Made by a program: the position numbers and the translations under genes. From an uncultured Acidobacteriota bacterium (lineage in GTDB: Bacteria; Acidobacteriota; Vicinamibacteria; Vicinamibacterales; UBA2999): a DNA stretch of 64,000 bases. The notes beneath the pieces are model-generated. The model had not been told where the DNA came from and searched no databases. It saw only the letters and a program-made list of their open reading frames with translations. Below, one piece after another: positions 3,589 to 60,190 of the stretch (position 1 is its first letter; each line of letters starts with the position of its first letter). The stretch is taken from assembly GCA_963709325.1 (NCBI GenBank), contig CAVPVV010000003.1, forward strand, positions 2,561,147 to 2,625,146, in the 5' to 3' direction.

Positions 3589-3595
3589 GGCGTGT

Positions 3596-3839
3596 CCATT
3601 GCCGATTGAGGATTGACGATTGACGATCTACTGACGATTAGGTGATCGGCGGATTGTGCGATTCGATTGACGATTGCGATATTGATCCAAATCGCCCATT
3701 GATCCAATGGACGATTCTGTCAATCGCCATTGAGGCAATGCGTCATTGAGCCAATGCGCCTATCACCAATTGAATGGCGCAATCCTCAAATCGTGAATCG
3801 TCAATGAATCGTCAATCGCCAATCCTCATTCGTCATTGG
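3596..3839. repeat. Imperfect ~240-bp palindrome built from heptamer-periodic CGATTGN (left arm) / NCAATCG (right arm) units; family copy 1
   Basis: Left-arm gaggattgacgattgacgat is nearly the reverse complement of right-arm atcgtcaatcgccaatcctc. The termini (CCAATGACGAATGAGGATTGGCGATTGACG...) are about 80% identical, by eye, to those of the element at 38827-39191. It lies between the convergent stops of mmsA and the DUF3037 gene, and supplies the last codons (..SNDE*) of the latter. Confidence 0.8.
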
Positions 3840-4236
3840 ACGCAGCGCGTCCGCGCCGCACCACACGTTCCATCAAGTGCTCCAGGCAGGCGGCAGGATC
3901 GGTTGTGCGCCCGGTGTGCACCTCGGAGGGCTGGATGATGGTGCTGCGCGGGGCGACGAGCCAGCGGAACCGGCCGCGCAAGGGAAGGGCGCCGATTGGG
4001 CCGGCCTCCGGCCCACCCTTGCAGACCACGGGAATCACGGCCAGGTTGCTGCGGACCGCATCCATGTCCACCGCGGGATCGATGGCGCGGATCAGCGCCT
4101 CGTCCACCTCGATGCGAGCGTCGAGGAAATCGCTGTCGGCGCAGGACAGGATGACGCCGACGTTGATCCGTTCGCCGCGATCGACTCGAGGCACGACCCG
4201 CACGATCGCGTAGTCGTAGGTGTATTCAGCGGACAC
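3826..4236 (-). CDS. DUF3037 domain protein
   Basis: 136-aa ORF. The N-terminus YDYAIVRVVPRVDRGERINVGVILSC matches my recollection of the DUF3037 signature. It overlaps the upstream HipA-like gene by 11 nt. Confidence 0.65.
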   Translation of the reverse strand: MSAEYTYDYAIVRVVPRVDRGERINVGVILSCADSDFLDARIEVDEALIRAIDPAVDMDAVRSNLAVIPVVCKGGPEAGPIGALPLRGRFRWLVAPRSTIIQPSEVHTGRTTDPAACLEHLMERVVRRGRAASNDE

Positions 4237-5002: not shown

Positions 5003-5031
5003 TACGGTATTGTCACCGATTCACTTGCGCC

Positions 5032-7857: not shown

Positions 7858-10291
7858 ACAGCTGCAGCGCCGCCCAGTAATACGGCTTCGGGTAGCCGTT
7901 CGCAATGAGGGCGCGCTTGGCCTCGCGCAAGGCCACCGCCGGTGGCGCTCCCGCAGCCAGCCGCGCATACAGATCGTTCATCAGCGCGGCCGTGGATCGG
8001 TCGTCCACGTCCCACAGGCCGGCCACGACGCGACGAGAACCGGCCCGCAGGAACGCCCAGGCGAAGCCAATCAGCCCTTCGCCAGCGTAGGCACGCTCGC
8101 CGGCGCTGCGGCAGGCCGACACCGTGACGAGATCCGCCCTCAGCGGCAACGCCGCCACCTCGCGCGCGTAGAGTTTGAAGCCGTGATCCGGCCCAGACAG
8201 AATCACTGCAGAGTCCAGCGGGCTTTCGAGATTCGCGACCGCGTGCGAGGTGAAATGAATCATCGAGAATCCTTCCGGCTTCGCGGCCCTGAACCCCGCA
8301 GGCGACGCCTTCTCGCCGGCGATCACGGTTACCGAGGCCGGAGGAAAGTGCGAGCGCACGGCGTCCATTTCGGCAGGCGCATAGCTGAGCGCCGGGAACT
8401 CGGGCGGACGGGGCGCGGCGTTGCCGACAAGCAGAAGCGACGGCGGCGGGACCGGCCGGCTGCCGGCCTCGAGCATCGCCAGCGACGGTGCGATCTGAAC
8501 CGTCACGTCGTCGATCCAGTAATGACGCGGCGCGCCGGGCACCGGGATCGTTTCGAAGTTCAGGCGATGGAGCGCTCCGTCGGGAACGATGACCACCGAG
8601 GCGGTAGACGCGATGGCGGCGGAAATGGGCTCGACCAGCGTTGAATACAGCCGATCGCCGGGTCGATTCGCCGCCGATAGCGGGTCGACGAGCGCGTTCT
8701 GGATCGCCGCCTGGTGCTCGGTGACGAGCGGCGCGATGTCGTTCGATCCCGCGAGGGGCACCGCGCGGATCTCCCGCCCGGTGACCGTCCACACCCACGA
8801 CCGCTCGGCGCCGAGCGCGTAGAACACCATCGCCGTGTTCGTGCGTCCGGCAAGGCGCTTCAGGGCGGCGGCCGAGGCGTGTACTGCCGGTGCTGCCACT
8901 CCCTGGCGCTCGGCCAGAACTCGAGCCCGACTGGCGTCGGCGACCTCGAGCGCGCGTTCGACCTGGCCCTGCGAGAGCAGCAGCTCGGTATAGCCGCGAT
9001 AGAACGCGACGAGCCGCGACGTGAAAGAGATCCGGTCGTCGGCGCGAAGGAGCGACGATCGCGTCTGCTCGACGATGACCAGCGCTGCTTCGAATTGACG
9101 CGCGGCCTCGGCCGGCTGCCCGCTCGCGGTGGCCAGGCGGGCGAGCCCCTCGCAGGCCATCCATCGAACTCCGGGCGTGGCCTTCGGGTCCGAGACCGCC
9201 TGTCGGAACAGGCGGGCCGCGTCTTCGCCGTGACCACGTCCCGCCGCAATCCTGCCGTCGGTGACGAGCGCATACGGCGACGGGCCGCCGCTGGACGACT
9301 GTGCGAGCCGCGCCGCCTCCTGGTTGTAATGCGCCGCATCGTCCCACTGCTCCATCGCCACGTAGGCGGCCGCCAGGTTGCGCGCGAACAGCGCGGCGTC
9401 GCTCGCCAGGCCCGCGTCAGCGGCAATGCCGAAAGCGCGGCGTAGGTACTCCACGCTTTGCGCGTAGTCCTCGCGCAGCAGATACGTGCTTCCCAATTCC
9501 CCAAGGGCCTGCGCCAGGCTCTGTTTGCGTCCCGATTCCTGACTCGCGACCGCGCGTTGTTGCAAGGCAATCGCCTGGTCGAACTGACCGAGACGCGCGT
9601 GGCAGAGGCCGGCGTTGTTGAACGCCTGGGCCTGGACGGTAGTCCCCTCGAGCTCCGGGTTCTCGACGATACGCTCGAAGTGCGGGAGCGCTTCGTCATA
9701 GCGGCCGCGCGTGACGAGCCCCATGCCGCTCGCTATGGACACCTGGGCGAGGCGATACGGGTCGCCCTCTGCAGACACGCGCTTGAGCGTTGCGCCAAGA
9801 AGCGTGTCGGCTTGGACCGCGCGGCCGGTTCGATAAAGAACCTGGCTTTCGAGCAGCTCGAGGTCGGCGAGAAGCGCCGGATCAGCATCGGCAAGTGGTT
9901 TCGCAGCAGCAATCAGGGCTGGCGCCTCGTCGAGCTGCCCTTGCGCGACCTTTGAACGGGCCTGGAGTTGCAGCTGGCGCCCGCGAACGGGGTTGAGCCC
10001 GGACCGCTGGGGAACCGTGTCATCGAGCCAGCGCCTGGCCGCGGCGAGGTTGCCGCGACTGAGCTCGGCGTCGGCAACCAGCAGCCTGAATCGCCAAGTT
10101 CGGAGCTCATCGCCGGCCCGTTCGGCTCGCGCCGCGCCGTCCGCGGCAGCCTCGAGCGCACCGTCGATCCTGCCGCGCCGCATCTGCTCCTGTGCGGACG
10201 CGTAATCGCGATCGAGAGCAGACGGCGAGGACCCGCACGCGATCGACAGGATCGCCGCGACCGCCGCCAGCGCGACGCATCGACCGCCCAC
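7841..10291 (-). CDS. TPR-repeat + CHAT-domain (caspase-fold) protease, with N-terminal signal/lipoprotein-like peptide
   Basis: 816-aa ORF. N-terminus is MGGRCVALAAVAAILSIACGSS. It has a long alpha-helical TPR-like region and a C-terminal CHAT domain with His (IHFTSHAV) and Cys (LVTVSACRSA) dyad contexts. Confidence 0.85.
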   Translation of the reverse strand: MGGRCVALAAVAAILSIACGSSPSALDRDYASAQEQMRRGRIDGALEAAADGAARAERAGDELRTWRFRLLVADAELSRGNLAAARRWLDDTVPQRSGLNPVRGRQLQLQARSKVAQGQLDEAPALIAAAKPLADADPALLADLELLESQVLYRTGRAVQADTLLGATLKRVSAEGDPYRLAQVSIASGMGLVTRGRYDEALPHFERIVENPELEGTTVQAQAFNNAGLCHARLGQFDQAIALQQRAVASQESGRKQSLAQALGELGSTYLLREDYAQSVEYLRRAFGIAADAGLASDAALFARNLAAAYVAMEQWDDAAHYNQEAARLAQSSSGGPSPYALVTDGRIAAGRGHGEDAARLFRQAVSDPKATPGVRWMACEGLARLATASGQPAEAARQFEAALVIVEQTRSSLLRADDRISFTSRLVAFYRGYTELLLSQGQVERALEVADASRARVLAERQGVAAPAVHASAAALKRLAGRTNTAMVFYALGAERSWVWTVTGREIRAVPLAGSNDIAPLVTEHQAAIQNALVDPLSAANRPGDRLYSTLVEPISAAIASTASVVIVPDGALHRLNFETIPVPGAPRHYWIDDVTVQIAPSLAMLEAGSRPVPPPSLLLVGNAAPRPPEFPALSYAPAEMDAVRSHFPPASVTVIAGEKASPAGFRAAKPEGFSMIHFTSHAVANLESPLDSAVILSGPDHGFKLYAREVAALPLRADLVTVSACRSAGERAYAGEGLIGFAWAFLRAGSRRVVAGLWDVDDRSTAALMNDLYARLAAGAPPAVALREAKRALIANGYPKPYYWAALQLFTVVL

Positions 10292-10297
10292 GGCACG

Positions 10298-11122
10298 CTA
10301 CTCCGGCCAGGATCCGTTCGTATCGACGTCGCTGACCGAGCCCGATCCGCCAGTCGGGGATCCCAGCTCCATCCTGATCATCACCAGCCGGCGGGTGCTC
10401 GACTGCACGATCAGCTCGCCGAAATAGAACTCACCGAGATTCGGGATGCGGATGCCGTTGCTGCCGATCTTCTCGGAGCGCGGATACTCGCGCCCGTTCT
10501 GCCAGTCCAGCGACGTGACGATGGTGCTGAAGACCATGTCGCGATCGCCGTGCTTCTGCGGGATGTCGCGGTTCTCGATCAGCTTGGCTCGGGTATCGGC
10601 CTTCTGGAACCGCTCGATCTCGATGACGACGTCGAGCTTGAAGCGTCCGTGCACGGGTGAGTCGAACGTCACGGTCGAGACCTTGGCCGACTCGACGATC
10701 ACCGACGATTCGTGGCCTGGCTTGCTGCTCCGCGACACCAGCGCCGCCGACACGTCGGCCACGCGCATTGTCGGCTCCGGTTCGTCGTTGCGATTGAGCG
10801 GCGGCGCGCCGCCGATCTCGACGCCCTGGCAGCGGGCGCTGACGCGGGTGGTCGCGGTGAGCGATTCCGCCGGCATCTGGCGGCGAGTGACGCGGATCGC
10901 GTCCTTCATGTTGTCGACGAGGCCTTCAGCGAACGTTTCCGCCTGCCGGATCCGGAACGAGCGGCCGAGCTTGATGTCGCGCTCCCGCCAGACCGATCGG
11001 CCGCCGGTGATCGACAGCGCGCTCCCGCCGCTCGAAGCGAGCACCACGTTATCGGGGCGCACGAAGTGGCCGCCGAACGCAGCCGCGCTACCGTTGAACA
11101 GGAAACGGCGAGTCAATTCCAT
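10298..11122 (-). CDS. Hypothetical 274-aa protein, no domain recognised; lies 6 nt upstream of the TPR-CHAT gene
   Basis: Clean ORF in a sensible frame with no competing real gene. It has no signal peptide or TM segment, looks beta-strand-rich, and has a Gly/Ser-rich C-terminal tail (GSPTGGSGSVSDVDTNGSWPE). Confidence 0.6.
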   Translation of the reverse strand: MELTRRFLFNGSAAAFGGHFVRPDNVVLASSGGSALSITGGRSVWRERDIKLGRSFRIRQAETFAEGLVDNMKDAIRVTRRQMPAESLTATTRVSARCQGVEIGGAPPLNRNDEPEPTMRVADVSAALVSRSSKPGHESSVIVESAKVSTVTFDSPVHGRFKLDVVIEIERFQKADTRAKLIENRDIPQKHGDRDMVFSTIVTSLDWQNGREYPRSEKIGSNGIRIPNLGEFYFGELIVQSSTRRLVMIRMELGSPTGGSGSVSDVDTNGSWPE

Positions 11123-11140
11123 GGGTGGATCCTTGACCAG

Positions 11141-11235
11141 GTGAGAAGTGAGCGGTGGAAATGAGAAGCAAGCCCGAAGCTGGAATTACCGCCTGTTACT
11201 TAGCTTCTCACCTCTCACTTCTCGCTTCTTACTTC
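11141..11235. repeat. GTGAGAA-family purine/pyrimidine-asymmetric hairpin repeat (copy 1 of 3)
   Basis: Left arm gtgagaagtgagcggtggaaatgagaagcaagc pairs with right arm gcttctcacctctcacttctcgcttcttacttc. The right arm encodes the last codons of the anti-sigma gene (..SEVRSEK*). Confidence 0.75.
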
Positions 11236-11955
11236 GGAGACGGTGAACTTGTATTCCAGCGACGCTGACCCGGGCGCGCCGGAGGTTCCGACGGACAAGG
11301 TGTAGCGGCCGGCAGAGTCCAGCGCTGATGCGGGAATCAGCAGCAGCAGCGGCGTGCCGGGGGGAGGGGCCGCAGCGGTTCCGGACGCCACCGACACGCC
11401 GTCGGCGGCGCGGAGATCATACGTCAGGCTGGCGCCGGCGGCGACGGCACCGAGATCGACGGCCAGGGCGAGGACGCCGGCGGCTGGCCGCGTCAGCGTC
11501 GGCTCCGTCCCGCGCGAGGCCCCTCGCAGCGTGACCGGCGACAACACGGTCGGACCGATGATCTGCTCGCGAAGAGCGGGAACCACCCACAGCGCCTGGT
11601 AGCCGGCGACGAGGGTGAGCATCGCCGCGGCGGCCCATGGCAGCGCCGAACGCCACACCTGGGGCGTGGCACGTGGGACCTGGGGCTTGAGGCTTGGGGC
11701 CTGGGGCCTGGAGAGGTCCTGGGGTTTCGGGGTCTTGAGGTCTTGGGGGCGTGACGTCCTGGGGGCTTGGACTCCCGACTGCGGCAGAAGTCCCGCCTTG
11801 ACACCTTCCTGCATGAGGGCACCGGTCCTCACGTCCTCGGCGCAAATCGGGCAGGCGAAGAGATGTTCCTCGAACGCGAAGCGCTCGAGCTCCGGCATGT
11901 CGTCGAGCAGATAGCGCTCGGCGGCGTGCTTCTCGACGGCCTGCTCGTGTGTCAC
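11215..11955 (-). CDS. Anti-sigma factor, zf-HC2 type, single-pass membrane protein
   Basis: 246 aa. It has the HxxxCxxC motif (HLFACPICAEDV), a Pro-rich linker, one TM segment (WAAAAMLTLVAGYQALWVV) and a ~120-aa extracytoplasmic domain. Its start overlaps the sigma gene stop by 4 nt. Confidence 0.8.
   Translation of the reverse strand: MTHEQAVEKHAAERYLLDDMPELERFAFEEHLFACPICAEDVRTGALMQEGVKAGLLPQSGVQAPRTSRPQDLKTPKPQDLSRPQAPSLKPQVPRATPQVWRSALPWAAAAMLTLVAGYQALWVVPALREQIIGPTVLSPVTLRGASRGTEPTLTRPAAGVLALAVDLGAVAAGASLTYDLRAADGVSVASGTAAAPPPGTPLLLLIPASALDSAGRYTLSVGTSGAPGSASLEYKFTVSEVRSEK
11659..11714. repeat. Tandem heptamer array (CTGGGGC-like x8, phase-preserving) embedded in the anti-sigma CDS
   Basis: Plus strand reads CTGGGGC GTGGCAC GTGGGAC CTGGGGC TTGAGGC TTGGGGC CTGGGGC CTGGAGA. 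It is translated on the minus strand as RPQAPSLKPQVPRATPQ. Confidence 0.7.
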
Positions 11956-12632
11956 GCGTCCATCCCCTCAGCGGCGCCGCCCTGGAACCGCTCGCGAAAC
12001 TTTGCCTTGGCGCGGTGGACGAGGACGCGCAGGTAGTTGCGGTCCACGTTCAGTGCGCGGCAGATGTCGTCCTTGTCCCGTTCCTCGAAAAACAACCATC
12101 GCAGCAGCTCCTGCTCGCGGTCCGGTAGGGCCGCCAGCGCTTCTCGAACCTGTTCCCGCTCCTCCGCCCGCAACAGCCCCGATTCCACGCTCGGCCGCTG
12201 CTCGTCCACCTGTTCGTGCCCTTCGGCCAGCTGCTGCACCTTGGCACCGGCGCGATAGCACTCGAACAGCACGTTGTTGCAGACGCTGTTCACGAACGCG
12301 CCGAGGCTTTCGGCCGATGCCAGCCCGCCGCGCTCCTTCAGCGTGGTCAGCACGCGCCGGAACGTCTCCTGGCGCGCGTCCTCGACCAGCGCGGCCGATC
12401 GCAGCCGCGAACGGAGCTTCAAGGTCAGCAGGTCCCCGAAGTAGCGAACGAAATGGCGCTCGGTCTCGGGATCGCCGCCGACCAGCCGATCCAGGTATTC
12501 ACGATCGAATTCAAACCGTTGGAGCCGCAAGCTCCGAATCGTATCCGCCTTCACTCCCTTTGGAAACCCACGGGAGCTTCGGCGGCAAACCCGGCTTCGT
12601 CGCACCTGCCGCACTGGCGGCACCGGCCGCAC
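11952..12632 (-). CDS. ECF-type RNA polymerase sigma-70 family factor
   Basis: Has a sigma-2-like region (FVRYFGDLLTLKLRSRL...ARQETFRRVL) and a sigma-4 HTH (LPDREQELLRWLFFEERDKDDICRALNVDRNYLRVLVHRAKAKFRE). The listed start gives an Arg-rich extension; TTG at 12530 (193 codons) is a more typical start. Confidence 0.8.
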   Translation of the reverse strand: MRPVPPVRQVRRSRVCRRSSRGFPKGVKADTIRSLRLQRFEFDREYLDRLVGGDPETERHFVRYFGDLLTLKLRSRLRSAALVEDARQETFRRVLTTLKERGGLASAESLGAFVNSVCNNVLFECYRAGAKVQQLAEGHEQVDEQRPSVESGLLRAEEREQVREALAALPDREQELLRWLFFEERDKDDICRALNVDRNYLRVLVHRAKAKFRERFQGGAAEGMDA

Positions 12633-12729
12633 TTGAGTGTGTGGTGTCGGACGGGGGTCGAACGTTACACCTCTGTCGCTGAAACGCCGGACCGACCGGC
12701 GACACTAGGGGTATGCAGCCGGAGCAATC

Positions 12730-13893
12730 ATGACGAACGGAACAGGTCACGAGCCATTTTTCGTCGGGTCCAGCGCCCTGAGCCGGCAGCTGGTCAACGA
12801 AATCGAGGTGGCCGCGCGATCGGACGCGAAAGTGCTCGTCACCGGTGAGACCGGGGTGGGCAAGGACGTGGTCGCGCGGCTGCTCCATCAGCGAAGTGCG
12901 CGCCGAGGGGCGCCGCTGGCTACCATCAACTGCGCGGGGCTGCCGGATAGCCTGCTCGAGTCGGAGCTCTTCGGCCACGTGCGCGGCAGCTTCACCGGCG
13001 CCGTCCGCGACAAGGCCGGCCTGCTCGAGACCGCGGATCGCGGCACTGCATTCCTGGACGAGGCCGGCGAAATGAGCCTCCGCATGCAGGGAATGCTGCT
13101 CCGCTTTCTCGAGACCGGCGAGGTGCAGCGCGTCGGCTGCGAGCGGACCAACCGCCGCGTCAACGTGCGCATCATCGCTGCGACGAATCGCGACCTGGCG
13201 CAGCACATCGCGAACGGCCTGTTCCGCAGGGACCTCTATTACCGGTTGAACGTCATCCGCATCCACGTCGCCCCGCTCCGCGAGCGGACCGAAGACATCG
13301 CCGATCTGTTCGAGTTCTTTGCCGCGGGGTTCGCGCGTCACTACCACGTCGGCGTCCGCACGTTGACCGCCGAGGCGCGGCGCCTGCTGGCGACCTACAG
13401 CTGGCCGGGCAACGTGCGCGAGCTGAAGAACCTCGCCGAACGGCTCGCGGTCCGGGGAGCCGGCGAGCCGGTCCGCCCCGAGCACCTGCCGCTCGAGTAC
13501 CTGCACGGCGTCCCGATTCCCGCCGACGCGAGCGCGCTCGATCCGAACGGGTCAGCGATGGAGGCCGGCCCGGCACCCGAAAATCACACTCTGCTTCGGC
13601 GCCTGCTCTACGAGCGCGAATCGTTCTGGACGGTGGTGCACAGACCCTTCATGGATCGCGATCTCTCGCGAGAACAGCTGCGCGATCTGATTCGCGCCGG
13701 ACTCGAGCGGACGAGCGGCAATTACCGCCTGCTGGTAGAGCTGTTCAACATGGCGCCGTCCGATTACAAGCGGTTCCTCGGATTCCTGCGCAAGCACGAC
13801 TGCCAGGTGCCGTTCCACCCATTTCGATCCGTGCGATCGCTGCCGATCCCGCACGCCGGTGCGGGCGACCCGACGCAGGCGGCGGCGATGTGA
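12730..13893 (+). CDS. Sigma-54-dependent transcriptional activator (bEBP) lacking an N-terminal sensory domain
   Basis: The AAA+ domain starts about 15 aa from the N-terminus. Motifs: Walker A GETGVGKD, a GAFTGA variant GSFTGA, ESELFGH, Walker B FLDEAGE. The C-terminal HTH-like segment is SGNYRLLVELFNMAPSDYKRFLGFLRKH. Confidence 0.85.
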   Translation: MTNGTGHEPFFVGSSALSRQLVNEIEVAARSDAKVLVTGETGVGKDVVARLLHQRSARRGAPLATINCAGLPDSLLESELFGHVRGSFTGAVRDKAGLLETADRGTAFLDEAGEMSLRMQGMLLRFLETGEVQRVGCERTNRRVNVRIIAATNRDLAQHIANGLFRRDLYYRLNVIRIHVAPLRERTEDIADLFEFFAAGFARHYHVGVRTLTAEARRLLATYSWPGNVRELKNLAERLAVRGAGEPVRPEHLPLEYLHGVPIPADASALDPNGSAMEAGPAPENHTLLRRLLYERESFWTVVHRPFMDRDLSREQLRDLIRAGLERTSGNYRLLVELFNMAPSDYKRFLGFLRKHDCQVPFHPFRSVRSLPIPHAGAGDPTQAAAM

Positions 13894-13924
13894 TGATCAG
13901 GGCCGGGACGCCGCGAAGAACGTG

Positions 13925-14281
13925 TCAGTGCGGGCGCTCGCGGCCAGCCGCGGCTCGTTGCCGCACTGTCGCGAGATCCTCCCGGACCGCCTTCAGCCAC
14001 GTGGATTCCGGTCCGGGCTGCGCACCGAGAATCTGCTCCGCCTGCTGGAGCACCGGCTCGGCTTCAACGGCGCGTTGCTGCCGCAGGAGCGCCCGGCCGA
14101 GCTTCGCATCGGCGATACCGACGTTCACATGATCGGCAGGCAGAACCGCGGCGTAGATGTCGAGGGCGCGGCGGATCGGCGCTACCGGTGTCGAACGACA
14201 ACCCGCGTGCGGAGGGCATGTTCCGGCGCGCCCCGACGAGATGGACCAGGCGGCGTCGAACGAGATCAGGATCCACGTCAA
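13925..14281 (-). pseudogene. Probable C-terminal remnant of a TPR-containing protein
   Basis: Only the last ~80 aa look protein-like (ALDIYAAVLPADHVNVGIADAKLGRALLRQQRAVEAEPVLQQAEQIL). The upstream part is nonsense and collides with the FN3 remnant on the other strand. Confidence 0.3.
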
Positions 14282-14289
14282 CGTCCCGG

Positions 14290-14834
14290 TCGGTGGCGCC
14301 CTCGGCGCCGGCGAACCTGACCGGGCTGGTCAACGGCACCTCGATCGCGCTCGCGTGGCGCAACACGTTCGAGCGGCGGGCCGCCGGGCGGCGTGGTCCT
14401 CGACGTGTCGGGGTCGCTCACCGCCTCGCTGCCGCTGGGGCTGACCGACGGCTTCCAGTTCAACGGCGTGCCCGGCGGCACCTACACGCTGGCCCTGCGC
14501 GGCGTGAACGCGGGCGGGATCAGCCCGCCGTCGAACGCGATCACGCTTGAGCTTCCCGAGCCCGACGTGCACGGGCCCGCCGCTGCCGCCGTCGCGGTTC
14601 CTGGCGTATCGCCTGTTCCGAACGCTGTTCGTGGTCTGGGACCCGGCCGAGACCGGCCCGGCGCCGACCTCCTTCGTGCTGAACGCGAGCGGCGCGTTCA
14701 TCGGCAGCATCGCCACGACCGGGCGGGCGCTGAACGGCTCGGTCGGCCCCGGCACGTATCAGCTGAGCGTCGCCGCGGTGAACGCGTGCGGCACCAGCGC
14801 CGCGACGCCGGCGCAAACCGTCGTCGTGCCGTAG
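14290..14834 (+). pseudogene. Frameshifted fragment of an FN3-like repeat protein, homologous to the C-terminal repeats of the 60278..63598 gene
   Basis: Two FN3-like modules are spread over three frames. These are the frame of ORF 14188 (ANLTGLVNGTSIALAWRNTF), the frame of 14393 (VVLDVSGSLTASLPLGLTDGFQFNGVPGGTYTLALRGVNAGGISPPSNAITL) and the frame of 14547 (CTGPP...FVVWDPAETGPAPTSFVLNASG...YQLSVAAVNACGTSAATPAQTVVVP*). There is no N-terminal part. Confidence 0.55.
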
Positions 14835-14855
14835 GGCCGCTCCGGGTGGGACCAG

Positions 14856-14888: not shown

Positions 14889-14944
14889 TTGGCTCCATCC
14901 CCCCCGCTCATGATAAAAACGCTCCTGACTACAAGGAGCGACCT

Positions 14945-16101
14945 ATGGCGTTCGAGACCACCCGTCGGGACATGTTGAAGACCAGCCTTGCCGGCGGCGC
15001 GGCCTGCTGGCCGTGCCGGAGTGGGCCCTGCCCACGCTGGCCCAGGGCGAAACGGTGGTGCCGTTTGCCGACTGGCCGGACAAGTTCGATCCGAACCCGG
15101 CGCCCGACCGCCGGCTGTTCGACAGCCGCACTATCAGCGGCCCGATGACGCCGAAAGACCAGTTCTTCACCACCCAGCACTACGGGCATCCAGTGGTCGA
15201 CCCGGCGACCTATCGGCTGAAGATCTCGGGGCTGGTCAACTCGTCGATGTCGCTCTCGCTCGACGAGGTCCGCAAGATGGGCAATGCCGAGATGATTCTC
15301 GGCTTCGAGTGCTCGGGCAACCGCCGCCCGCTGCAGGGCCTGATCGGCAACGGCAAGTGGACCGGCGTGCCGCTGAAGACCGTGCTCGACAAGGCCGGCC
15401 TCAAGCCGAACGCGCGCGAGATCGTCTTTTTCGGCGCCGACCGGGGCCAGGAGGAAGTCGAGTTCCGGGCCCAGAAGTTCAACGTCGAGCAGCAGTACGG
15501 CCGCAGCATGCCGCGCGACAAGGCGCTCACCACCGAGGCCTTCCTCGCCTACGCGCTCAACGGAGAGCCGCTCACCCGCCACCAGGGCTCGCCGCTCCGC
15601 CTCATCGTCCCCGGCTGGTACGGCGCGCCGAACGTCAAGTGGCTGTCGGAGATCCACGCCCAGGAGGATCAGTACCTCGGCAAGTTCCAGGCCCGCTGGT
15701 ACCGCACGCTGAAGGGCGAGATGATCGACGGCGAGATGAAGTGGGTGGAATCGGCCATCACCCACCTGCAGCTCAAGTCGTTCGTCGCCCGGGTGACGAA
15801 GGCCGGCAATCAGTACAAGGTGCTGGCGGTGGCGCTCAACGACGGCACACCGCTCAAGACCGTCGAGCTGAAGGTCGACGACGGCCCGTGGCAGGCGATG
15901 ACGGCGGACCCATCGACCAACGCGAAGTACGGCTGGAAGTTCTACAACTACACGTGGAACGGCACCGCCGGTGAGCACACGCTGGTCTCGCGGGCCACCG
16001 ACGCCAACGGCCAGGTCCAGCCAACTGAGAAGGATCTCGAGAACAAGAAGACGTTCCTCGAGGACAACTCGCAACAGCCACGCAAGCTGACGCTCGCCTG
16101 A
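14945..16101 (+). CDS. Sulfite-oxidase-family molybdopterin oxidoreductase (SorA/YedY-like) with Tat signal; apparent 1-nt frameshift near 14993-15003
   Basis: AAGGAG lies 8 nt before the ATG at 14945. The Tat signal MAFETTRRDMLKTSLAGGAA is in one frame. The catalytic part (ORF 15013..16101; Mo-ligand Cys context GFECSGNRR, plus dimerisation domain) is in another frame. The junction would read ...GGAA(G)LLAVPEWALP. Confidence 0.8.
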
Positions 16102-16209
16102 AGTGAGAGGTCAGAAGTGAGAGGTGAGAGGCACGGACAGTGCTCTCTGGCCTCTCACTTCTTTCTTCCTGCTTCGCTTCTAACTTCTCACCTCTCATTT
16201 TCACTTCGG
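16101..16209. repeat. GTGAGAA-family hairpin repeat (copy 2 of 3) filling the gap between convergent stops
   Basis: Left arm aagtgagaggtcagaagtgagaggtgagagg pairs with right arm cctctcacttc...cttctcacctctcattttcacttc. It could act as a bidirectional terminator. Confidence 0.75.
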
Positions 16210-34546: not shown

Positions 34547-34548
34547 GA

Positions 34549-36117: not shown

Positions 36118-38862
36118 CTATTTCGGCGACCCGGGCGCGGAGGCGGGGGCCTGTCCGAGGCTCAGGAGATTCGCCATCAACCGGAACGCGCCATCGGTGC
36201 CGGCCGGCAGCTGACGCCACAGGCCCAGGCCGATGTAGATCCAGCGTCCCTTGCCGACTTCCGCTTCGACCAGCGCGCCGCGCTTGGTTCCTTGGTTGTA
36301 CGCGAACGGCTCCTCGAACTCGAGCAGGTCCTTGATGTGCGGATCGCGATCCTGGGCGTCGAAGAAGTAGAGCCCGCGTTCCTGGACCCAGCCGGTCCAG
36401 TCCGCTCGCCCGATCTGGTTTGGTGTGTTGAACACCGGATTCTTCGGTTCGAGCAGACGCACTTCGGCGTTCTCGTCGGTCACACGCTCGCGGCCGACCT
36501 TACCCGGGTAAGGGGCGTACTGGGCATCGTTGAACTCGAACTTGTTGTAGTTGACGATCACGGTGCCGCCGGCGGCCGCGTAGTCGAGCAGCCGCTGGTT
36601 GTAGGCACGCAGATCGAGGCGCCGCTCGTAGGCACGGACGCCGGTCATCACCACGTCGTATTTCGTCAGGTCGCCCCAGGCCAGCTCCTCGGGCCCAATC
36701 ATCGACACCGACACGCCGAGCTGTTCGAGCGCTTCGGGAATCTGATCGCCGACGCCCATCACGTAGCCGATCTTCAGGTTCGGCTTGACCGCGACGTCCA
36801 CGGCCTTCGCCGTCACCTCGGGTGCAACCAGCACGTGCCGCCGCGTGGTGTGCGGGTATTCGACGAGTTGATAGCCCTGCGCGTAGGTGGCACCGCCGTC
36901 GCGAACGACCGCCTTGATCGAGAACTGGCTGCCGCCTGGCTTCGCCGCCGCGGACGCCAGCATCGGCGACGGCGGGGCGTCGACGAAGAAGCGCACGGTC
37001 ATCGCCTCGTCCTCACGCGAGAACGACACCGGCTGGCTCGCCGGCGTCGCGCGCCAGCCCTGCGGCAGCTCGAGAGCGACCTCACCCCTGGCGGCGCCCC
37101 TCGCGTGGTTCAGCACGGTGACGCGCACGTCCTTGCGCGTGCCGCGGGCGTTGGCCGGCGTCGCGCGGCTTGGCACGATCAACGTGTCGGGGCTGGCCGT
37201 CACCGCGAAGGCGGGCACGACGTGCAGCTCGGCCCGCTTCTCGCCGCTGAACAGGTTGCCTTCGGAACGCGCCTGCACCGGGATCGTCACCGGGAATTCC
37301 ACGCCGGCGACCGCGAAGGTGAACGTCGCGGTGAAGGGCGTCGGGCGGAATGGCAACCCGAACGGCACGTCCGGATCGAGGATGAAGCGCGCCGCGTCTT
37401 TCGCGTACTTGAAATGTGCGGCTGTCGGACGCGCGGCGGCAGGGATGACGCCGCCCTTCTCCGTTGGCTGATCGAAGCCGTTCAACGTCCGCGACTTCAC
37501 TTCCACGGGCGTGGTCCCGCGAGCCGCGGCGATCAATTGCACGCCCACCTGCTGGCCCGGCGTCACCACGCCGTCGTCGGCGACTGCGTCGATGCGCATG
37601 TCGGTGGCGGCGACAATCGCGTTGATGAACTGCGATTCCTTCTGCGCCAGGCGGAAGTCGATCTCGAACGTGCCGCTGTCGGACAGCCCCATGCCGGCCA
37701 GGCTCTGACGGAGCGTGCGCACCGCGGTCAGCCCGGCGGCCAGCGGAGCAACGGTGGCGGCGCTGGTTTCGGCGCCGAGTGCGCGCCGTGCGGCTTCGAC
37801 GTGACCGGCAATCGTCGCGAGCGATTGGGTCAGCGCGGCGGGCGGATTGGTGCCAGCGTAGGCAGCCAGCGATCCGAGGCTGACGTCGATACCGTCGAAC
37901 GGCTCTTTCTCGGCGCGATCAACGCCGTCAGGCAGGACGGTGTCGCGCAGCCGGTAGGAGCGCGGACCGGACATGAACCCGCCCTCTCCCGGCAAGGGCA
38001 GGAGCTGCGACATGCCCTGGCACTTGTGCATGCTGCGGGCTTCACCCTGCAGCTCGTTGTAGGTGCGGCCGAGGACGTGGTCGTAATCCGCGCCGCCAGT
38101 GAACATCAGCGGCTTCGACGCACCGGGGCCGCTGAACTGCTGAGGGCCACCGCGTCCGCCGCCCGGACCGAAGCCCGCGGTGTAGTAGAACTTGGTCGCC
38201 TGCCAGGGGCGGAGCCCGTCCTTGATCTGCTCGGGGAACTGATTCGGATCCGCGGCCGCGCGAAACGCTTCGGCGGTGAGCCGCGAGGAGGTCTGGTGAT
38301 GCTGTCCGCCGCCCTCACCGTCGAACACGAAGCCGACGATGACCTGGGGGCGGATCGTGCGGATCATGCGCACGTAGTCGCCGAGGATCTCCTGGTGGCC
38401 CCACTTTTCCAGCGTCTCCTCGACGCTGAACGAAAAGCCGAAATCGACCGCGCGCGTGAAGTACTGCTCGGCGCCATCATAGCGGTGGGCCGCCAGCAGC
38501 TCCTCGGTCCGCAGCACCGCAAGCGCCTCGAAGAGCTCCGGGCCGATCTCGTTCTGTCCGCCCTCTCCGCGGGTCGCCGTCACCAGGGTAGTCCGCATCC
38601 CCTTGCCGTGGCCGTAATAGGCCAGCATGGCGTTGTTCTCATCGTCGGGATGCGCCGTCGTCATCATGAGAGTCCCGACCGTGTCCAGCTTCCGCAGCGC
38701 CAGTTCGACAGCCGGTACTCCGCGCAGCGCCGCCACCGGCTGCAACTGGTGCTGCGCGGTGGGCGCCTCAATCAGCGCCGCGACCCCCAGAGTGGCTATA
38801 GCCAGGCGCTGCGCGAGGCGCCGCGTCCAATGACGATTGGTGATTGCCGATTGACGATTCAT
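36118..38862 (-). CDS. Large PIG-L (LmbE-like) family deacetylase with C-terminal ThuA/GATase1-like domain
   Basis: Contains the AHPDDENNAML motif and a signal-like RRLAQRLAIATLGVAALIEAPTAQ. The listed start at 39018 runs through the repeat element; ATG 38862 (MNRQSAITNRHW) is the more likely start. Confidence 0.75.
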   Translation of the reverse strand: MNRQSAITNRHWTRRLAQRLAIATLGVAALIEAPTAQHQLQPVAALRGVPAVELALRKLDTVGTLMMTTAHPDDENNAMLAYYGHGKGMRTTLVTATRGEGGQNEIGPELFEALAVLRTEELLAAHRYDGAEQYFTRAVDFGFSFSVEETLEKWGHQEILGDYVRMIRTIRPQVIVGFVFDGEGGGQHHQTSSRLTAEAFRAAADPNQFPEQIKDGLRPWQATKFYYTAGFGPGGGRGGPQQFSGPGASKPLMFTGGADYDHVLGRTYNELQGEARSMHKCQGMSQLLPLPGEGGFMSGPRSYRLRDTVLPDGVDRAEKEPFDGIDVSLGSLAAYAGTNPPAALTQSLATIAGHVEAARRALGAETSAATVAPLAAGLTAVRTLRQSLAGMGLSDSGTFEIDFRLAQKESQFINAIVAATDMRIDAVADDGVVTPGQQVGVQLIAAARGTTPVEVKSRTLNGFDQPTEKGGVIPAAARPTAAHFKYAKDAARFILDPDVPFGLPFRPTPFTATFTFAVAGVEFPVTIPVQARSEGNLFSGEKRAELHVVPAFAVTASPDTLIVPSRATPANARGTRKDVRVTVLNHARGAARGEVALELPQGWRATPASQPVSFSREDEAMTVRFFVDAPPSPMLASAAAKPGGSQFSIKAVVRDGGATYAQGYQLVEYPHTTRRHVLVAPEVTAKAVDVAVKPNLKIGYVMGVGDQIPEALEQLGVSVSMIGPEELAWGDLTKYDVVMTGVRAYERRLDLRAYNQRLLDYAAAGGTVIVNYNKFEFNDAQYAPYPGKVGRERVTDENAEVRLLEPKNPVFNTPNQIGRADWTGWVQERGLYFFDAQDRDPHIKDLLEFEEPFAYNQGTKRGALVEAEVGKGRWIYIGLGLWRQLPAGTDGAFRLMANLLSLGQAPASAPGSPK

Positions 38863-39191
38863 TGATGATTCGCGATTGGGAAATTGCGGCATTCGATTGG
38901 TGATTGAGGGAGTGGCGATTGGATCATTGACGAATGCTGATTGGTGATTGGGATTGGACGACAAGCCGCGGCCGAGACCGAGATCGCGCTTGGCCCGGCG
39001 AGAGAACGGTGCGAACACGGGGCATCAACTGAGGCGCTGGTTCGGCCAAATTGCCAATCAAATCGCCAATCGCCAATCGTCATTCGCCAAATCGCCAGTG
39101 CCCCAGTGCAGCAATCGACAATCGAATGCCGCAATCCCAAATTGCCAAGCATCAATCGATCGTCAATCGTCAATCGGCCATTCGTCAATGG
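38827..39191. repeat. CGATTGN/NCAATCG heptamer-periodic inverted-repeat element, family copy 2 (arms ~130-145 bp, ~88-bp unique core)
   Basis: Left arm 38827-38957 and right arm 39046-39191 are mutually complementary (for example gattgggaaattgcggcattcgattg versus caatcgaatgccgcaatcccaaattgcc). The termini are homologous to those of copy 1. Confidence 0.8.
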
Positions 39192-39207
39192 ACGCGGCAA
39201 CGGCGGC

Positions 39208-42097
39208 TCAGAACGTGAACTTGAACCCAATCTGCAGCTGCCTCTGCTCGTACCCGCTGTTCGGCGTCAGCTGGTTAGCCGACGTCGGCAGCGGCGCCAC
39301 CGGGCTGCCGTTGGCATCGGTGGTGATGGTCGAGTTCACGCCAGCCCACTGTTCGGTGTTGAAGAGGTTCTTGACCTCGGCGATCACCTCGGCAGCGGTG
39401 TTGTGGGCAAACCGGATCCGCCGTGAATAGCGGAAGTCGACGTTGTAGCGGGCCGGCAGGTTGATCGAGTTGCGTGTCACGCCGGCCGGGCGGTCCGCAC
39501 CGATCGCGTCGTTGTTCAGTTCGCGGTTGCTGCGCAGCGTGACCGGGATGCCGCTCGCGAACTGCAGCGCGATGCCGAACAGGTTGTTGTTCAGGATCGC
39601 GCCGGCGACACCCGCCTGTCGAAGCGCGGCTGCGCCACGATGCTGCCGACGAAGGTATGGCGCTGGTCGAGGATGTTCGGGCCCATGTCGGGTCGAGGTT
39701 GGCGGGATCGCTGCGCGCCGGTGTCGCCCTGCACGGACAGCGTGCTCGTGATCGGCGCGTTGTCTTCGCTCTTCGCCAGGGTGTAGGCCAGGTCGCACCC
39801 GATGTCGTGGTAATGCGGCGGGTGAACTGCAGCGTCAGGTTCTTGTAAGACGACTCGCCAATCGACTGCGACGAGAAGACCACGTTGAAGCGCGGATCGA
39901 CGCGGGTCGCGGCGTTGATGGCGGTGTTGAAGATCGGGAGGCCGTCGGCGAGCTCGCCGATCGGGCCGAGCAGGTTGATGTTCGGTCACGACCGGCAGGT
40001 TGTAGCCGCTTCAGGTAACGCAGCGCCGACACCGACCGAGTAGCGGTCGTTCAGGGCGTCGTTCGAGCTGGACGTTGTTCTGCCACATCCTGGCAATCTG
40101 GAAGTCCGGATCGACAATCCACGGATTGTTCGGCCGCGGCGTTCCCGCTGCCGGAGCGAGGACGTTGGGAAAGCCGGCGCACCGACCTGCGTCGCCTGCA
40201 GCGAAAGCCACGCGCGCGCGTGGTGCCGTCGTTGCGATCGCCTGCTCGTAGATCGCGTTGATCGGCTGGTCGTACATCAGGCCGCTGTTGCCGCGCAGAC
40301 CGGTGCGCTGGTCCCCACCGAGCGCCCACACGAAGCCGACCCGCGGCGCGACGTTGTTCTTGTCGGTGGGAAACTCGTGCGAGGCGTCGAGCACGGCGGT
40401 TCGGGACGCCCTCCGGCGGCGTGTAGGTGTCGTAGCGCACGACCGTAGAGGAGCTTAAGCGTCGGGGTGAGACGCCAGTCGTCCTGCACGAAGAAGCCGT
40501 ACATCCGCGTGTTGTACTCGTAGGTCGGATTGCCGACGAATTGCTGGAACGAGGTGTAGCCGAACGGATTGGCCCCGCTGCGCGCCGCCAGAAACGCGTC
40601 GACGTTCGCGAACGTGTAGAGCTGGATCAGCGTCTGCGTGCGCGAGTCGCTGACCGCCTGCGGTTGAAGCCGAACTTGTAGGCGTGATTGCCGCGGATGT
40701 AGGTCAGAGTTGTCGAGGACTTGAAAAATCGCCCTCGGTGAACCCGAAGCCCGGAATCGGCGTTGCCGCGAACCGGACCGCCGAAGTTGGCCACGCCGTT
40801 GATGCGGACGCCGGTCCGGTCCCCGCCTGCGAGCCCGGCAGCCCTCGACTGCGTGCGCGTCGCATACTGCACACGGAACTCGTTCAGGAGCCCGTGCCGA
40901 TCGTCGAGACCAGCTGCCCGCCGGTGGAGTGCTGACGGTCGGTGAAGTCGGTCCCCTGCTGCACCGAGTTCGGAACGCCGGACGTCGTGCTGCCGATGTT
41001 GTTGGGAATGAAATTGTCGAAGAAGATGTAGCGGACCGATGAGCCGGTTGTTGGTCGAGACGTTGTGATCGATCTTGCCGATCGCGAACTCGTCTTCGCC
41101 TCGGCGGGAATGTAGGCTGCGGCTCGGAGAGCCCCAGGCCGCGCGGCATTGGCCGGCGTGATCGTCACGACGCGCGCGCCCGACAGGTCGCGCTCGGTGT
41201 GCTCGAGTCCGCCGAAGTAGAATGGGTCTTGTTCTTGATGATCGGCCCGCCGTTGTCGGCGGTGAAGATGTTCACCTTGGTCGGCGGCTTGACGCGGTCG
41301 GTCGCGAAGAACGGCAGCTCCACCATCGGCTTCCGCTGGAAGCGATAGCTCGCCTGCCCGTGGCAGGTCGATTGGTGCCCGACGGGGTGATCGCGTTGTA
41401 GACCAGCCCCATCGTCTGACCGAACTCGGGCGCGTAGCCGGTGGTGACGACCTTGACCTCGCGGATCATCACCTCGGACATCGGCATCTGCCGCAGGCCG
41501 GCGCGATCCTTCTGCGGTGTTGTCGTTGCCGTCGATCTGATAGTTCACGCGCAGCAGCGCGCCGTTGGCGGTGAGGCGCGGGACGCCGAACTCTTGCGTC
41601 TCGAAGCCGACGACGCCGGGCTGGAGCAGCGCGAAGTTGTACGGGTTCCTCGAGGTGAGCGGCAGCGTCTTGATCTCGGCGCTCGTCAACGTCCGCCCCT
41701 GCTCGATCTTGCCGAGGTCGACGAGCGGGGAATCGGCGGTGACCGAGACCGTCTCGGTGACCGCGCCGACCGACAGCTTGACGTCGACCACGGCGATCTG
41801 CCCGGCGCGAAGCGAGATGCCGCTCTGCTCGTACTTCTTGAAGCCTTGCAGCTCGGCGGCGACGCGATAGTCGCCGAGCGGCAGCAGCAGCGCGCGATAC
41901 ACGCCGCTCTCGTTGGTAATCACCGACCTCGTATCACCGGTTTCGACATTGCGCACGGTGACGACGACCCCGGGCAGGACCGCCCCCTGGTCGTCGGTGA
42001 CCGTGCCTTCGATGGTGCCGTTGATGGCCGTGGTCTGAGCGGCGCTGGGGAGCGCCGACGCGAACGCAAGCAAGAGTGCGAGGACTAGGCGGAGCAT
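39208..42097 (-). pseudogene. TonB-dependent receptor with CarboxypepD_reg N-domain, broken by many frameshifts
   Basis: GGAGG plus the ATG at 42097 give the signal peptide MLRLVLALLLAFASALPSAAQ, followed by GTVTDDQGAVLPGVVVTVRNVETG. Receptor-typical segments are scattered over all three minus frames (ORFs 41165, 41272, 40884, 40277, 40627, 40051, 40011, 39591, 39275, 39208). The gene ends with the canonical ...YEQRQLQIGFKFTF*. Confidence 0.8.
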
Positions 42098-52094: not shown

Positions 52095-52189
52095 GGAAGT
52101 GAGAAGTGAGAAGTGAGAAGTGAGAAGCAAGAGGCGCGAGGAAATCGGTGGGTCTGCTTCTCACCTTTCACCTCTCCTTTCTCATCTCG
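52095..52189. repeat. GTGAGAA-family hairpin repeat (copy 3 of 3) with a perfect (GTGAGAA)x4 tract
   Basis: Left arm ggaagtgagaagtgagaagtgagaagtgagaagcaagagg pairs with right arm ctgcttctcacctttcacctctcctttctcatctc. Confidence 0.8.
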
Positions 52190-57390: not shown

Positions 57391-58858
57391 TCGGGAGTCG
57401 GGAGTCGGGAACCGGGAGTCGGAAGAGCGCTTGTCTGGTGCTCGTCCTGGGCATCACGCTGATCGCGGGTCCGGCGCCCGCGCAGCAGCCCGATCGATCG
57501 AAGCCGCCTGCGATCGGCCCGGCGCCGGCGCTGAGGCTGCCGTCAGTCGAGAAAGGGACGCTCTCGAACGGCGTTCCTGTGTGGGTCATCGAGCAGCATC
57601 GAGTGCCGCTGGCACAGGTCAACGTGATCATGCGCGGTGGCAGCAGCCTCGACCGAAGCGGGCGTTACGGCATGGCCAGTCTCGTCGCGGCGATGCTCGA
57701 TGAAGGCGCCGGAGCGCGCTCCGCTCTCGATCTTGCTGACGCGGTGGATTTGCTGGGCGCGGATCTCTCGACCAGCAGCACCTTCGACTACTAGCGCCGT
57801 GCGGCTCTCGGTGCCGGTCAAGAACCTGGCGCCCGCGCTGGGGCTCCTCGCCGACGTCGTACTTCGCCCCACCTTCCCCGCAAACGAGCTTGAGCGCTTG
57901 AAGAAAGAGCGGCTCTCTGCGCTCGTCCAGGCGCGGGACAACCCGGCCCAGATCATCGGATACGCGTTTCCGCGTGTGGTGTTCGGGCCGACCTATCGCT
58001 ATGGCACGCCGGCCTCCGGGCTGGGTCCGGTGATCGAGGCGATCACCGCCGACGAGGTCCGCGCGTTCTACAAGGAGCACTACACCTCCGGCAACGCGAC
58101 GATCGTCGTCACCGGTGACGTGACACTGGCGAGCGTGAAGGCGGAACTCGACAAGGCGTTCACCGGCTGGCCGTCGAGCGGCGCGCGCGGGACGACCGCA
58201 GCGCTGCCGGTTGCGCCCCAGTTGACCAAGCGCGAGATCGTGCTGGTGGACAAGCCCGGGAGCGGCACAGTCGCAGATCCGCATCGGGTGGGTCGGCGTG
58301 CCCCGCTCGACGGCCGATTACGCCACGCTGCAGGTGTTGAACTCGCTGCTTGGCGGGTCGTTCGGATCACGGCTCAACCAGAACCTGCGCGAGGAACACG
58401 GCTACACCTACGGTGCGGCGTCGATGTTCGACATGCGGTCGTCCGCCGGCCCGTTCCTTGCCACTGCCGGCGTGCAGACCGACAAGACGGCCCCGGCGCT
58501 GCACGAGTTCTTCGTCGAGCTCGAGGGCATCCAGAAGCCGATTCCGGCAGCTGAGGTCGAGAAGGCGAAGAACTACGTCGCACTCGGTTTCCCGGCGGAG
58601 TTCGAGACCACGCGCGCGCTCGCACAGAAGCTCGAGGAGCTGATCGTCTACAACCTGCCCGACGACACTTACCAGTCCTTCTTCGGCGCGGTCCAAAAGG
58701 TCACCCTCGCCGAGGTCCAGAAGGCCGCCGCCCGCTACATCCAGGCCGACAAGCTGGCCATCGTCGTCGTCGGTGATTTGAAGGCGATTGAGCCGGGCAT
58801 CAAGGCACTCAACCTCGGTCCGATTCGCGTGGTACCGATCGAGGAGTTCTTCAAATAG
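57387..58858 (+). CDS. M16 family peptidase, non-catalytic partner subunit; two frameshifts (~57792 and ~58265)
   Basis: Three collinear ORF pieces (57387..57794, 57637..58554 middle part, 58298..58858) join as ...STSSTFDY|SAVRLSVPVKNL... and ...VLVDKPG..|QSQIRIGWVGVPRSTADYATLQVLNS.... There is no HxxEH motif. The start overlaps the upstream stop (ATGA). Confidence 0.75.
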
Positions 58859-60111: not shown

Positions 60112-60127
60112 CTCTGGCGGCTTTCTA

Positions 60128-60190
60128 CCTTCTGCCTTCTGCCTTCTGCCTTCTGCCTTTTGCCTTTGCCTGCCTTTGGCCTTGACTTTG
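60128..60190. repeat. (CCTTCTG)x4 tandem heptamer followed by degenerate CCTTTTG/CCTTTGG units
   Basis: Read directly from the sequence. It is pyrimidine-rich on the plus strand, has no complementary arm nearby, and lies between the flavoprotein stop and the metalloprotease gene. Confidence 0.8.

Follow-up and report, generated by a model that had tools for sequence, protein, structure and literature searches.

A 64,000-nucleotide (nt) stretch from an uncultured Acidobacteriota bacterium of the order Vicinamibacterales (contig CAVPVV010000003.1, positions 2,561,147 to 2,625,146; the whole stretch is hereafter called the window) carries three hairpins at gene boundaries, and we consider it very probable that these loci are inverted pairs of tandem heptanucleotide arrays built on the unit GTGAGAR, in which the G- and purine-rich array comes 5' on both strands. 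On the + strand each locus runs from a GTGAGAR-like purine array, across a spacing of 14-26 nt, into a complementary YTCTCAC array. As an overall explanation we favor, with somewhat better than even confidence, hypermutable heptameric simple-sequence repeats (SSRs) whose inverted pairs persist where they do no harm and fold as RNA hairpins resembling repetitive extragenic palindromic (REP) sequences. The loci join a class of gene-end heptamer SSRs already described in bacteria, in its wider form and not as its G-quadruplex subtype; heptamer repeats at gene ends are the known part, and the GTGAGAR unit with its hairpin arrangement is the new one. They are neither a REP-type mobile element nor a proven terminator, nor are they copies of a conserved element. 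The parts of the three loci are as follows.

Locus 1, 11141..11172, + strand: 5' purine arm, GTGAGAA GTGAGCG GTGGAAA TGAGAAG CAAG
Locus 1, 11173..11198: loop, a unique sequence without kinship to the loops of loci 2 and 3
Locus 1, 11199..11235, + strand: 3' pyrimidine arm, whose minus strand reads GTAAGAA GCGAGAA GTGAGAG GTGAGAA
Locus 2, 16101..16132, + strand: 5' purine arm
Locus 2, 16133..16149: centre, a GCAC...GTGC mini-hairpin plus loop
Locus 2, 16150..16206, + strand: 3' pyrimidine arm, split into segments 16150-16167 and 16176-16206
Locus 3, 52096..52134, + strand: 5' purine arm, in which GCAAGAGG follows four perfect GTGAGAA units
Locus 3, 52135..52154: loop
Locus 3, 52155..52188, + strand: 3' pyrimidine arm

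An earlier sequence-only reading had assigned the three loci to one hairpin family with a single architecture, and the sequences, the period-7 arms and the folds all agree with this assignment; its figure of 19-30 nt for the loop region lies near the spacing that we measured without matching it exactly. Tandem Repeats Finder reported period 7 at 11204-11235 (4.6 copies), 16103-16131 (4.1 copies) and 52096-52127 (4.6 copies, 100% matches), and all three loci contain the head-to-tail 7-nt unit in about three or more copies by which heptameric SSRs are recognized. The likeness among the loci ends with this unit: the loops are mutually unrelated, and arm lengths and unit variants differ. Within the window, 12 of the 16 exact GTGAGAR matches fall inside the roughly 300 nt that make up the three loci, and a two-unit pattern with up to three mismatches matched 24 times, 20 of them in the loci, a total that none of 100 shuffles reached. 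Chance or low complexity as the origin of the loci is rejected by this clustering together with the shuffle test. The + strand RNAs are predicted to fold with energies of -46.7, -52.5 and -53.3 kcal/mol (z -4.4 to -4.9), none of 200 shuffles being as stable. The minus strand of each locus folds about as well as the + strand. The description of the repeats as strand-asymmetric is a misnomer, because a purine-first hairpin stays purine-first when reverse-complemented; the real asymmetry is one of polarity, with the G-rich arm always 5'. The G-tracts that define the Xanthomonas/Nostoc G-quadruplex subtype are absent, GTGAGAR having no GGG run, and a search of the whole window against Rfam at the gathering threshold gave no match.

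All three loci sit at gene ends, as had been proposed. Locus 1 overlaps the stop codon (11215-11217) of a zf-HC2 anti-sigma gene (11215-11955, minus strand) and on its other side lies 18 nt from the start codon (11122) of a gene for a 274-residue protein (10298-11122, minus strand) that has no Pfam match. The last five residues of the anti-sigma protein, V-R-S-E-K (11218-11232), and its TGA stop are supplied by the pyrimidine arm, and the claim that the arm has been co-opted as the C-terminus of this protein (...SEVRSEK*) is correct: the window protein ends in ...YKFTVSEVRSEK, and its ortholog in the relative L130 ends in ...YRFTVTER. Homology between the two proteins stops at ...FTVSE, five residues ahead of the window stop, which indicates that the VRSEK* tail derives from the array. 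Locus 2 occupies exactly the space left by two convergent stops, 16099-16101 and 16210-16212; its purine arm begins at the last TGA base of a molybdopterin oxidoreductase gene (15013-16101, + strand), and its pyrimidine arm ends 3 nt short of the stop of a duplicated MacB/FtsX permease gene (16210-18846, minus strand). The hairpin of locus 3 separates the purK stop (52219) from the start of a Trans_reg_C/TPR regulator (52086), both genes being on the minus strand, with the purine arm 9 nt from the regulator start codon and the pyrimidine arm 30 nt downstream of the purK stop; the stretch between the purK stop and this arm contains a short inverted repeat, GACTGC/GCAGTC, read from the sequence and not folded. 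The placements that the sequence-only reading gave for loci 2 and 3 are confirmed, and that of locus 1 holds for its position between the two genes; the word orphan, which it had used for the 274-residue gene, does not hold, given a 63%-identical ortholog in L130 that makes this a conserved gene.

At the orthologous sites in more distant relatives the GTGAGAR pairs of loci 1, 2 and 3 are absent. A look-up of three window proteins for exact matches found none on record. The best purK homologs, with labels of Acidobacteriota or Vicinamibacterales, reach only about 60% identity. In the Vicinamibacterales contig L121 the order M16 peptidase, purE, purK, Trans_reg_C is the same as in the window, and the distance from the purK stop to the regulator ATG is 15 nt, versus 132 nt with the hairpin in the window. 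L130, a more distant relative, has 69-75% nucleotide identity to the window around locus 1 and 82% at the molybdopterin oxidoreductase gene by locus 2. Its spacer at the locus 1 site measures 39 nt and holds a small GC hairpin, and its locus 2 site has a GC-rich hairpin and no GTGAGAR pair. Contigs with 91-95% nucleotide identity occur in the soil metagenome samples Ga0310890 and Ga0310900. The soil-metagenome contig L126, with 95% identity across 3.5 kb, still has the locus 2 hairpin in place (-53.3 kcal/mol) with an identical inner stem; its outer units differ by about 15%, versus about 5% in the flanks, and the window and L126, as the single alignable pair, offer one countable compensatory pair. 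Conversely, L043, a metagenome-assembled genome (MAG) of an Acidobacteriota bacterium, carries a GTGAGAR array following its ortholog of the window gene 33284-36001; at the corresponding place the window lacks one. Four contigs that encode an identical purK protein, L121-L124, differ in heptamer copy number: an (AGCCTAR)n array between convergent genes (L121 12523-12607, compared with L122, L123 and L124) has about 12 versus 3 units, a difference of about 9, and a (CGGCAAC)n array (L121 17334-17428) differs by exactly one unit from that of L122. These differences are direct evidence of heptamer slippage in Vicinamibacterales.

The gene neighborhood of locus 1 is itself kept in L130. A cluster encoding a CHAT/TPR protein, the 274-residue protein, the zf-HC2 anti-sigma factor and an extracytoplasmic function (ECF)-type sigma factor (window 7841-12632) corresponds to L130 5186-9883 at 69-76% nucleotide identity, and from its sequence context we read the 274-residue gene as one that accompanies the sigma and anti-sigma genes as their conserved partner. 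The coding sequence of the anti-sigma factor itself contains, at 11657-11769, in-frame repeats with periods of 7/21 (CCTGGGG...) and 8/16, which fall together with a P/Q-rich insertion of 20 residues (RPQDLKTPKPQDLSRPQAPS) missing from the L130 ortholog; this looks like heptamer slippage by multiples of three units within a coding linker.

Further copies, which the sequence-only reading had made a test of its proposal, are plentiful elsewhere. A 19-nt pattern that matches all three loci, AGAAGTGAGARGTGAGARG, was scanned against one genome per GTDB species and found in at least 120 stretches, versus about 17 that we estimate to be expected by chance. Tallied by record title among the matches listed, these comprise 32 loci from Bacteroidota, 29 from Gemmatimonadota, 12 from Verrucomicrobiota, 11 from Acidobacteriota, 9 from Proteobacteria and Desulfobacterota together, 9 from Bacillota, 7 from Planctomycetota and 11 from other phyla, with none from Actinomycetota; the unit occurs, again among the matches listed, in at least 8 phyla with differing flanks. 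The listed matches that we inspected have arrays of 3 to at least 18 units, often starting at a stop codon and often followed 10-220 nt on by a complementary arm. In the 120 listed loci and the window together we counted 195 period-7 arrays, 85 of them with units other than GTGAGAR, and no more than 20 arrays for every other period from 4 to 12, suggesting that genomes with GTGAGAR arrays are generally prone to heptamer repeats. Among the papers searched, none mentions, in a bacterial context, the exact GTGAGAA repeat strings or the hairpin arrangement.

Two side observations concern these other genomes. At four loci from Bacteroidota and Gemmatimonadales genomes (L029 5926-6183, L055 629-877, L042 3784-4024 and L053 737-932) the loop of the GTGAGAR hairpin holds a second long palindromic repeat, such as GTCATCCTGAGCGAAGCGAAGGATCC..., and the heptamer arms flank this second repeat element. 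A Ruminococcus MAG (L084 7692-7881) carries inverted arrays of the telomere-like heptamer TTAGGGG, also with the G-rich arm first.

We derived rules of polarity and position with our own scripts from the 120 listed loci, calling genes with a crude self-trained codon model whose individual calls are sometimes wrong (L041, for example, was called divergent and looks convergent). Among 139 purine arrays with both flanks available, a complement (alignment score of at least 12) lay downstream in 63 and upstream in 0, resulting in about 44 distinct hairpins and leaving 81 arrays single, without a partner arm. Hairpins with other units behaved similarly, the 5' arm having G>C in 30 and G<C in 2. Inverted pairs with only the G-rich arm first, a mark of heptameric repeats, are accordingly the rule here and include all three window loci. 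The arrays are also tied to stop codons. On 86 array sides that face a gene 3' end, the stop was a TGA within the array (offsets +1, +8 and +15) in 43 and lay no more than 15 nt upstream in 39, which puts 82 of 86 stops in the range from -15 to +21 nt relative to where the array starts. Single arrays adjoin a gene at the 5' end of their G-rich strand, where they meet a gene end in 39 cases and a divergent gene start in 16; their 3' side is mostly non-coding. Spacers that bear an element were tandem in 62 cases, convergent in 32 and divergent in 10, versus 175, 52 and 75 among control spacers of at least 50 nt from the same loci, so that convergent spacers are enriched and divergent ones depleted (convergent:divergent odds ratio 4.6, p = 8e-5). 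The 3'-end enrichment that the sequence-only reading had predicted is upheld by these counts, and the intergenic location, the sense orientation of the G-rich strand at or over the stop and the divergent depletion known from heptameric repeats all recur with GTGAGAR.

The unit has a further property that bears on its polarity. Since 7 mod 3 = 1, three GTGAGAA copies supply each reading frame with a TGA, so any open reading frame (ORF) that enters an array ends there, as the anti-sigma gene does at locus 1. A three-frame stop was considered as the sole cause of the polarity. It holds for other units (23:5), but it is confounded with G/purine richness (30:2), and it is rejected as the sole cause also because the Xanthomonas unit, which has a like polarity, contains no stop codon. 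Recent fold-back duplication as the origin of the arms likewise found no support in a mirrored-variant test: the order of unit variants agreed between arms at 0.47 versus 0.46 in the null (p = 0.22), so mirroring does not exceed chance. The candidates left for the absolute G-first polarity are avoided exposure of Rho-loading C-rich RNA, the polarity of a terminator and a strand-specific mutational mechanism.

In the explanation that we favor, arrays would arise and change by replication slippage, as is held for other bacterial heptamer repeats, and would persist only where their insertion is harmless: after or over a stop codon with the G-rich strand sense, or just ahead of a start codon with that strand antisense, and seldom in the divergent spacers that bear promoters. 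A pair that is transcribed would form an imperfect hairpin of the 30-bp class that fills an intercistronic or convergent spacer. We propose only tentatively, and at somewhat less than even confidence, that such hairpins would have a REP-like role as a barrier to 3' exonucleases and at most as a partial attenuator between cistrons. Tolerance of insertions where no promoter is disrupted explains the 3'-end enrichment and the divergent depletion equally well. Several points weigh against this explanation as a whole. Every role of the hairpins at the RNA level is one that we infer. The unmirrored order of variants in the arms does not bear out a simple recent fold-back duplication, and the explanation does not account for the absolute G-first polarity. 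The recurrence of one unit in many phyla is not what random slippage predicts and hints at selection or a shared mechanism. Locus 2 of L126 differs from that of the window by substitutions and small indels with an equal number of units, slippage having been seen only for other units and in relatives. Finally, an unbiased 572-kb sample of relatives contained only 7 strict heptamer arrays, a frequency which indicates that richness in such arrays is specific to some genomes.

The polarity rule (63:0, and 30:2 for other units), by which the G-rich strand always points 5'->3' from the neighboring gene to the spacer centre, and the spread of one unit over at least 8 phyla could instead reflect a dedicated mechanism or a selected function, a reading that we judge to be rather improbable. 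The mechanism could be a strand-specific fold-back or the templated extension of 3' ends by heptamers where forks have stalled or at breaks; the selected function could be that of an insulator module that combines a three-frame stop with a hairpin and spares the exposure of Rho-loading C-rich RNA. Were either form true, the account of this repeat class by G-quadruplexes would fall as well, because GTGAGAR follows the published positional rules without G-tracts. The hairpins might also be factor-independent bidirectional terminators, their purine 5' arm and U/C-rich 3' arm acting as A-tract and U-tract. They do lie directly 3' of stop codons, convergent spacers are enriched and divergent ones depleted, and G/purine-first is the polarity of a bidirectional terminator. 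Canonical terminator-like sites are, moreover, no commoner than in shuffles (in the 17 kb scanned, positions 3000-20000, the consensus matched 6 sites versus 7.9 expected, none of which falls on locus 1 or locus 2), and in Xanthomonas the starts or ends of transcripts occur at repeats of this kind more often than at control ones (PMC4692102). We nevertheless regard this as unlikely, and the label terminator-like, given to the loci by the sequence-only reading, is not supported. In place of the short GC-rich stem, 3-8-nt loop and U run of an intrinsic terminator, the loci have imperfect stems of about 30 bp and lack a U-tract, their tails reading CTTCGG or CGGGCC (locus 3 being judged by sequence only). 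Loci 1 and 3 lie within co-directional junctions that measure 39 and 15 nt in relatives, and the 18 and 9 nt left before the downstream start are too short for a promoter; the downstream genes must therefore be read through the hairpin, and efficient termination would silence them. About two thirds of the classified hairpins (22 of 33) stand in co-directional gene pairs, most of those listed having a called downstream start within about 60 nt of the hairpin end or overlapping it, and the 3'-end enrichment is equally expected from tolerated insertions. Efficient termination is therefore unlikely at loci 1 and 3; a terminator role at the convergent locus 2 is possible.

Two further readings have far less in their favor. 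Dispersal by a transposase, for example a REP-associated Y1 transposase, would make the hairpins mobile elements akin to REP sequences, bacterial interspersed mosaic elements (BIMEs) or miniature transposable elements with inverted repeats (MITEs). This would account for hairpins that are dispersed, intergenic and present or absent at orthologous sites, and it could draw on the second palindromic repeat in some hairpin loops of other genomes and on the common terminal sequences of another repeat family in the window (GATTGAC, below). The three GTGAGAR copies, however, have only the repeat unit in common, without the conserved imperfect palindrome of 20-40 nt that runs through all copies of a REP or BIME; their loops are unrelated, and their arm lengths and unit variants vary by copy. 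Neither a terminal inverted repeat beyond the array nor a target-site duplication is visible, no direct repeats flank the loci, and occupied and empty sites are not alignable to define insertion boundaries. The unit also appears in at least 8 phyla with differing flanks (among the matches listed), and arrays stand single more often than they form hairpins (81 versus 44). We consider a mobile element very improbable; the loci are not a dispersed REP-like element, and in this sense the sequence-only reading's label REP-like is not supported. Nearly as improbable is the idea, proposed earlier for TAACTGA repeats (PMC4679880), that a protein able to read 7-nt repeats, such as a cold-shock-domain or S1-like protein, uses the arrays as a binding platform and tunes the translation or stability of the flanking cistrons. 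The strict 7-nt periodicity, the recurrence of the unit in distant phyla, the location of arrays a few nucleotides from start and stop codons and a Shine-Dalgarno-like GAGGTGA, read from the sequence of GTGAGAG units, would all suit such a platform. Many units occur side by side in one genome, however, the hairpin would sequester most arrays, the units drift fast between close relatives, and no candidate protein was identified.

The three loci are not the only heptamer repeats in the window, in which Tandem Repeats Finder detected at least four further arrays or hairpins with other units.

3589..3845: (GATTGAC)n/(GTCAATC)n hairpin of about 250 nt that fills the spacer of the convergent stops 3588 and 3826; -121.9 kcal/mol, z -8.9
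38815..39210: GATTGAC-type hairpin of about 390 nt, running from the TGA of a minus-strand gene that ends at 39208 to the start region of the next gene; -197.6 kcal/mol, z -10
57391..57422, + strand: single array of (TCGGGAG) x4.6, with the G-rich strand sense, directly 3' of the stop of an M16 peptidase gene (55957-57390)
60121..60171, + strand: single array of (TTCTGCC) x7 in a co-directional spacer, about 10 nt past the stop of the gene ending at 60111, with the minus strand G-rich and no complementary arm

Unlike the GTGAGAR loci, the two GATTGAC hairpins have common termini, with GCGTCCAATGACGA and GCGTGTCCATTGCCGA on the left and CATTCGTCAWTGGACGC on the right, and on this sequence evidence the family could be MITE-like. 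The (TCGGGAG) array begins just after the ATGA overlap of two M16 peptidase genes and would encode the first 12 or so residues of the second, ahead of a signal-peptide-like segment; the true start codon of this second gene may lie downstream of the array. Two unrelated repeats were also noted. The spacer after the gene ending at 49922 contains three copies of a palindromic motif, (A/T)GGGGGACAGTCCCC(C)TA, at 49923-50031, which represent a palindrome family of their own, REP-like in kind. Two tandem copies of the 17-nt CTAACAGGTTAGTTAAT, with an inverted pair CTAAC/GTTAG, lie at 27539-27572 in a divergent spacer of 82 nt that is richer in AT; this could be an operator.

These repeats matter for annotation, in that gene callers extend or truncate ORFs at arrays whose pyrimidine strand is open, and whose purine strand is closed, in all three frames, and real proteins can take their last codons and their stop from a repeat. 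The two of three hairpins that were inserted in junctions that are tight in relatives offer natural test cases for the effect of an intercistronic hairpin on operon expression, in a phylum, Acidobacteriota, for which to our knowledge there are almost no transcript 3'-end data. Most worth pursuing are the return of a single unit across phyla and the strictness with which polarity is kept.

Among known systems, intrinsic (Rho-independent) terminators resemble the GTGAGAR loci in having a hairpin right after the stop with a purine-rich 5' and a pyrimidine-rich 3' side, and differ from them in that the loci have no U-tract, a very long imperfect stem and, in two of three cases, a tight co-directional junction. 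The REP/BIME sequences of Enterobacteria and Pseudomonas are likewise intergenic hairpins 3' of genes or between cistrons, and plausible stabilizers of the upstream mRNA; they are conserved imperfect palindromes of 20-40 nt tied to the REP-associated Y1 transposase, whereas the arms of the GTGAGAR hairpins are tandem arrays in which only the 7-nt unit is conserved. Closer parallels are found among heptamer repeats. Long bacterial SSRs with units of 5-11 nt over-represent heptamers, which Mrazek et al. (2007), as cited in PMC4679880 and PMC4692102, attributed to polymerase slippage, and in the accounts given there these repeats and the heptamers among the short tandemly repeated repetitive (STRR) sequences of cyanobacteria are like ours in their dominant period of 7, their intergenic location and the slippage proposed for them. 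The TAACTGA direct repeats that MacGregor (2015; PMC4679880) described in marine Beggiatoaceae, some Cyanobacteria and Bacteroidetes are also intergenic heptamer arrays, patchy across phyla, and as forward arrays they too have stops in three frames and at times overlap the upstream stop codon. They differ in being mostly forward and just upstream of start codons, GTGAGAR arrays being mostly inverted pairs or stop-adjacent, and in being almost wholly direct, with 169 direct sets versus one indirect in the Orange Guaymas 'Maribeggiatoa' (BOGUAY) genome (PMC4679880).

The closest likeness is to the G-rich heptamers of Xanthomonas (GGGAATC) and Nostoc (GGGGAYT) described by Rehm et al. (2015; PMC4692102). 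As sense-strand repeats these are found no more than 50 bp from the stop, at times overlapping it, and as antisense-strand repeats they stand upstream of ORFs. Spacers of divergent ORFs are depleted of them, their convergently oriented inverted pairs number 70-75, and their length and sequence vary between close species. Both they and the GTGAGAR loci are intergenic 7-nt arrays, typically of about four copies, and both are found on the sense strand at stops and the antisense strand at starts, with divergent depletion and the G-rich arm first. The hosts differ, GTGAGAR occurring in Acidobacteriota, Gemmatimonadota, Bacteroidota, Verrucomicrobiota and Planctomycetota, and so do the units, in that GGGAATC contains no stop codon on either strand, whereas GTGAGAR gives TGA in all three frames. 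G-quadruplexes have been proposed for the Xanthomonas and Nostoc repeats, whereas GTGAGAR, without G-runs, cannot form any. Given that GTGAGAR obeys the published positional rules without G-tracts, these rules are independent of G-quadruplex formation, and a more general cause of heptamer behavior is indicated, with slippage bias, insertion tolerance, Rho avoidance and an RNA 3' hairpin function as the candidates.

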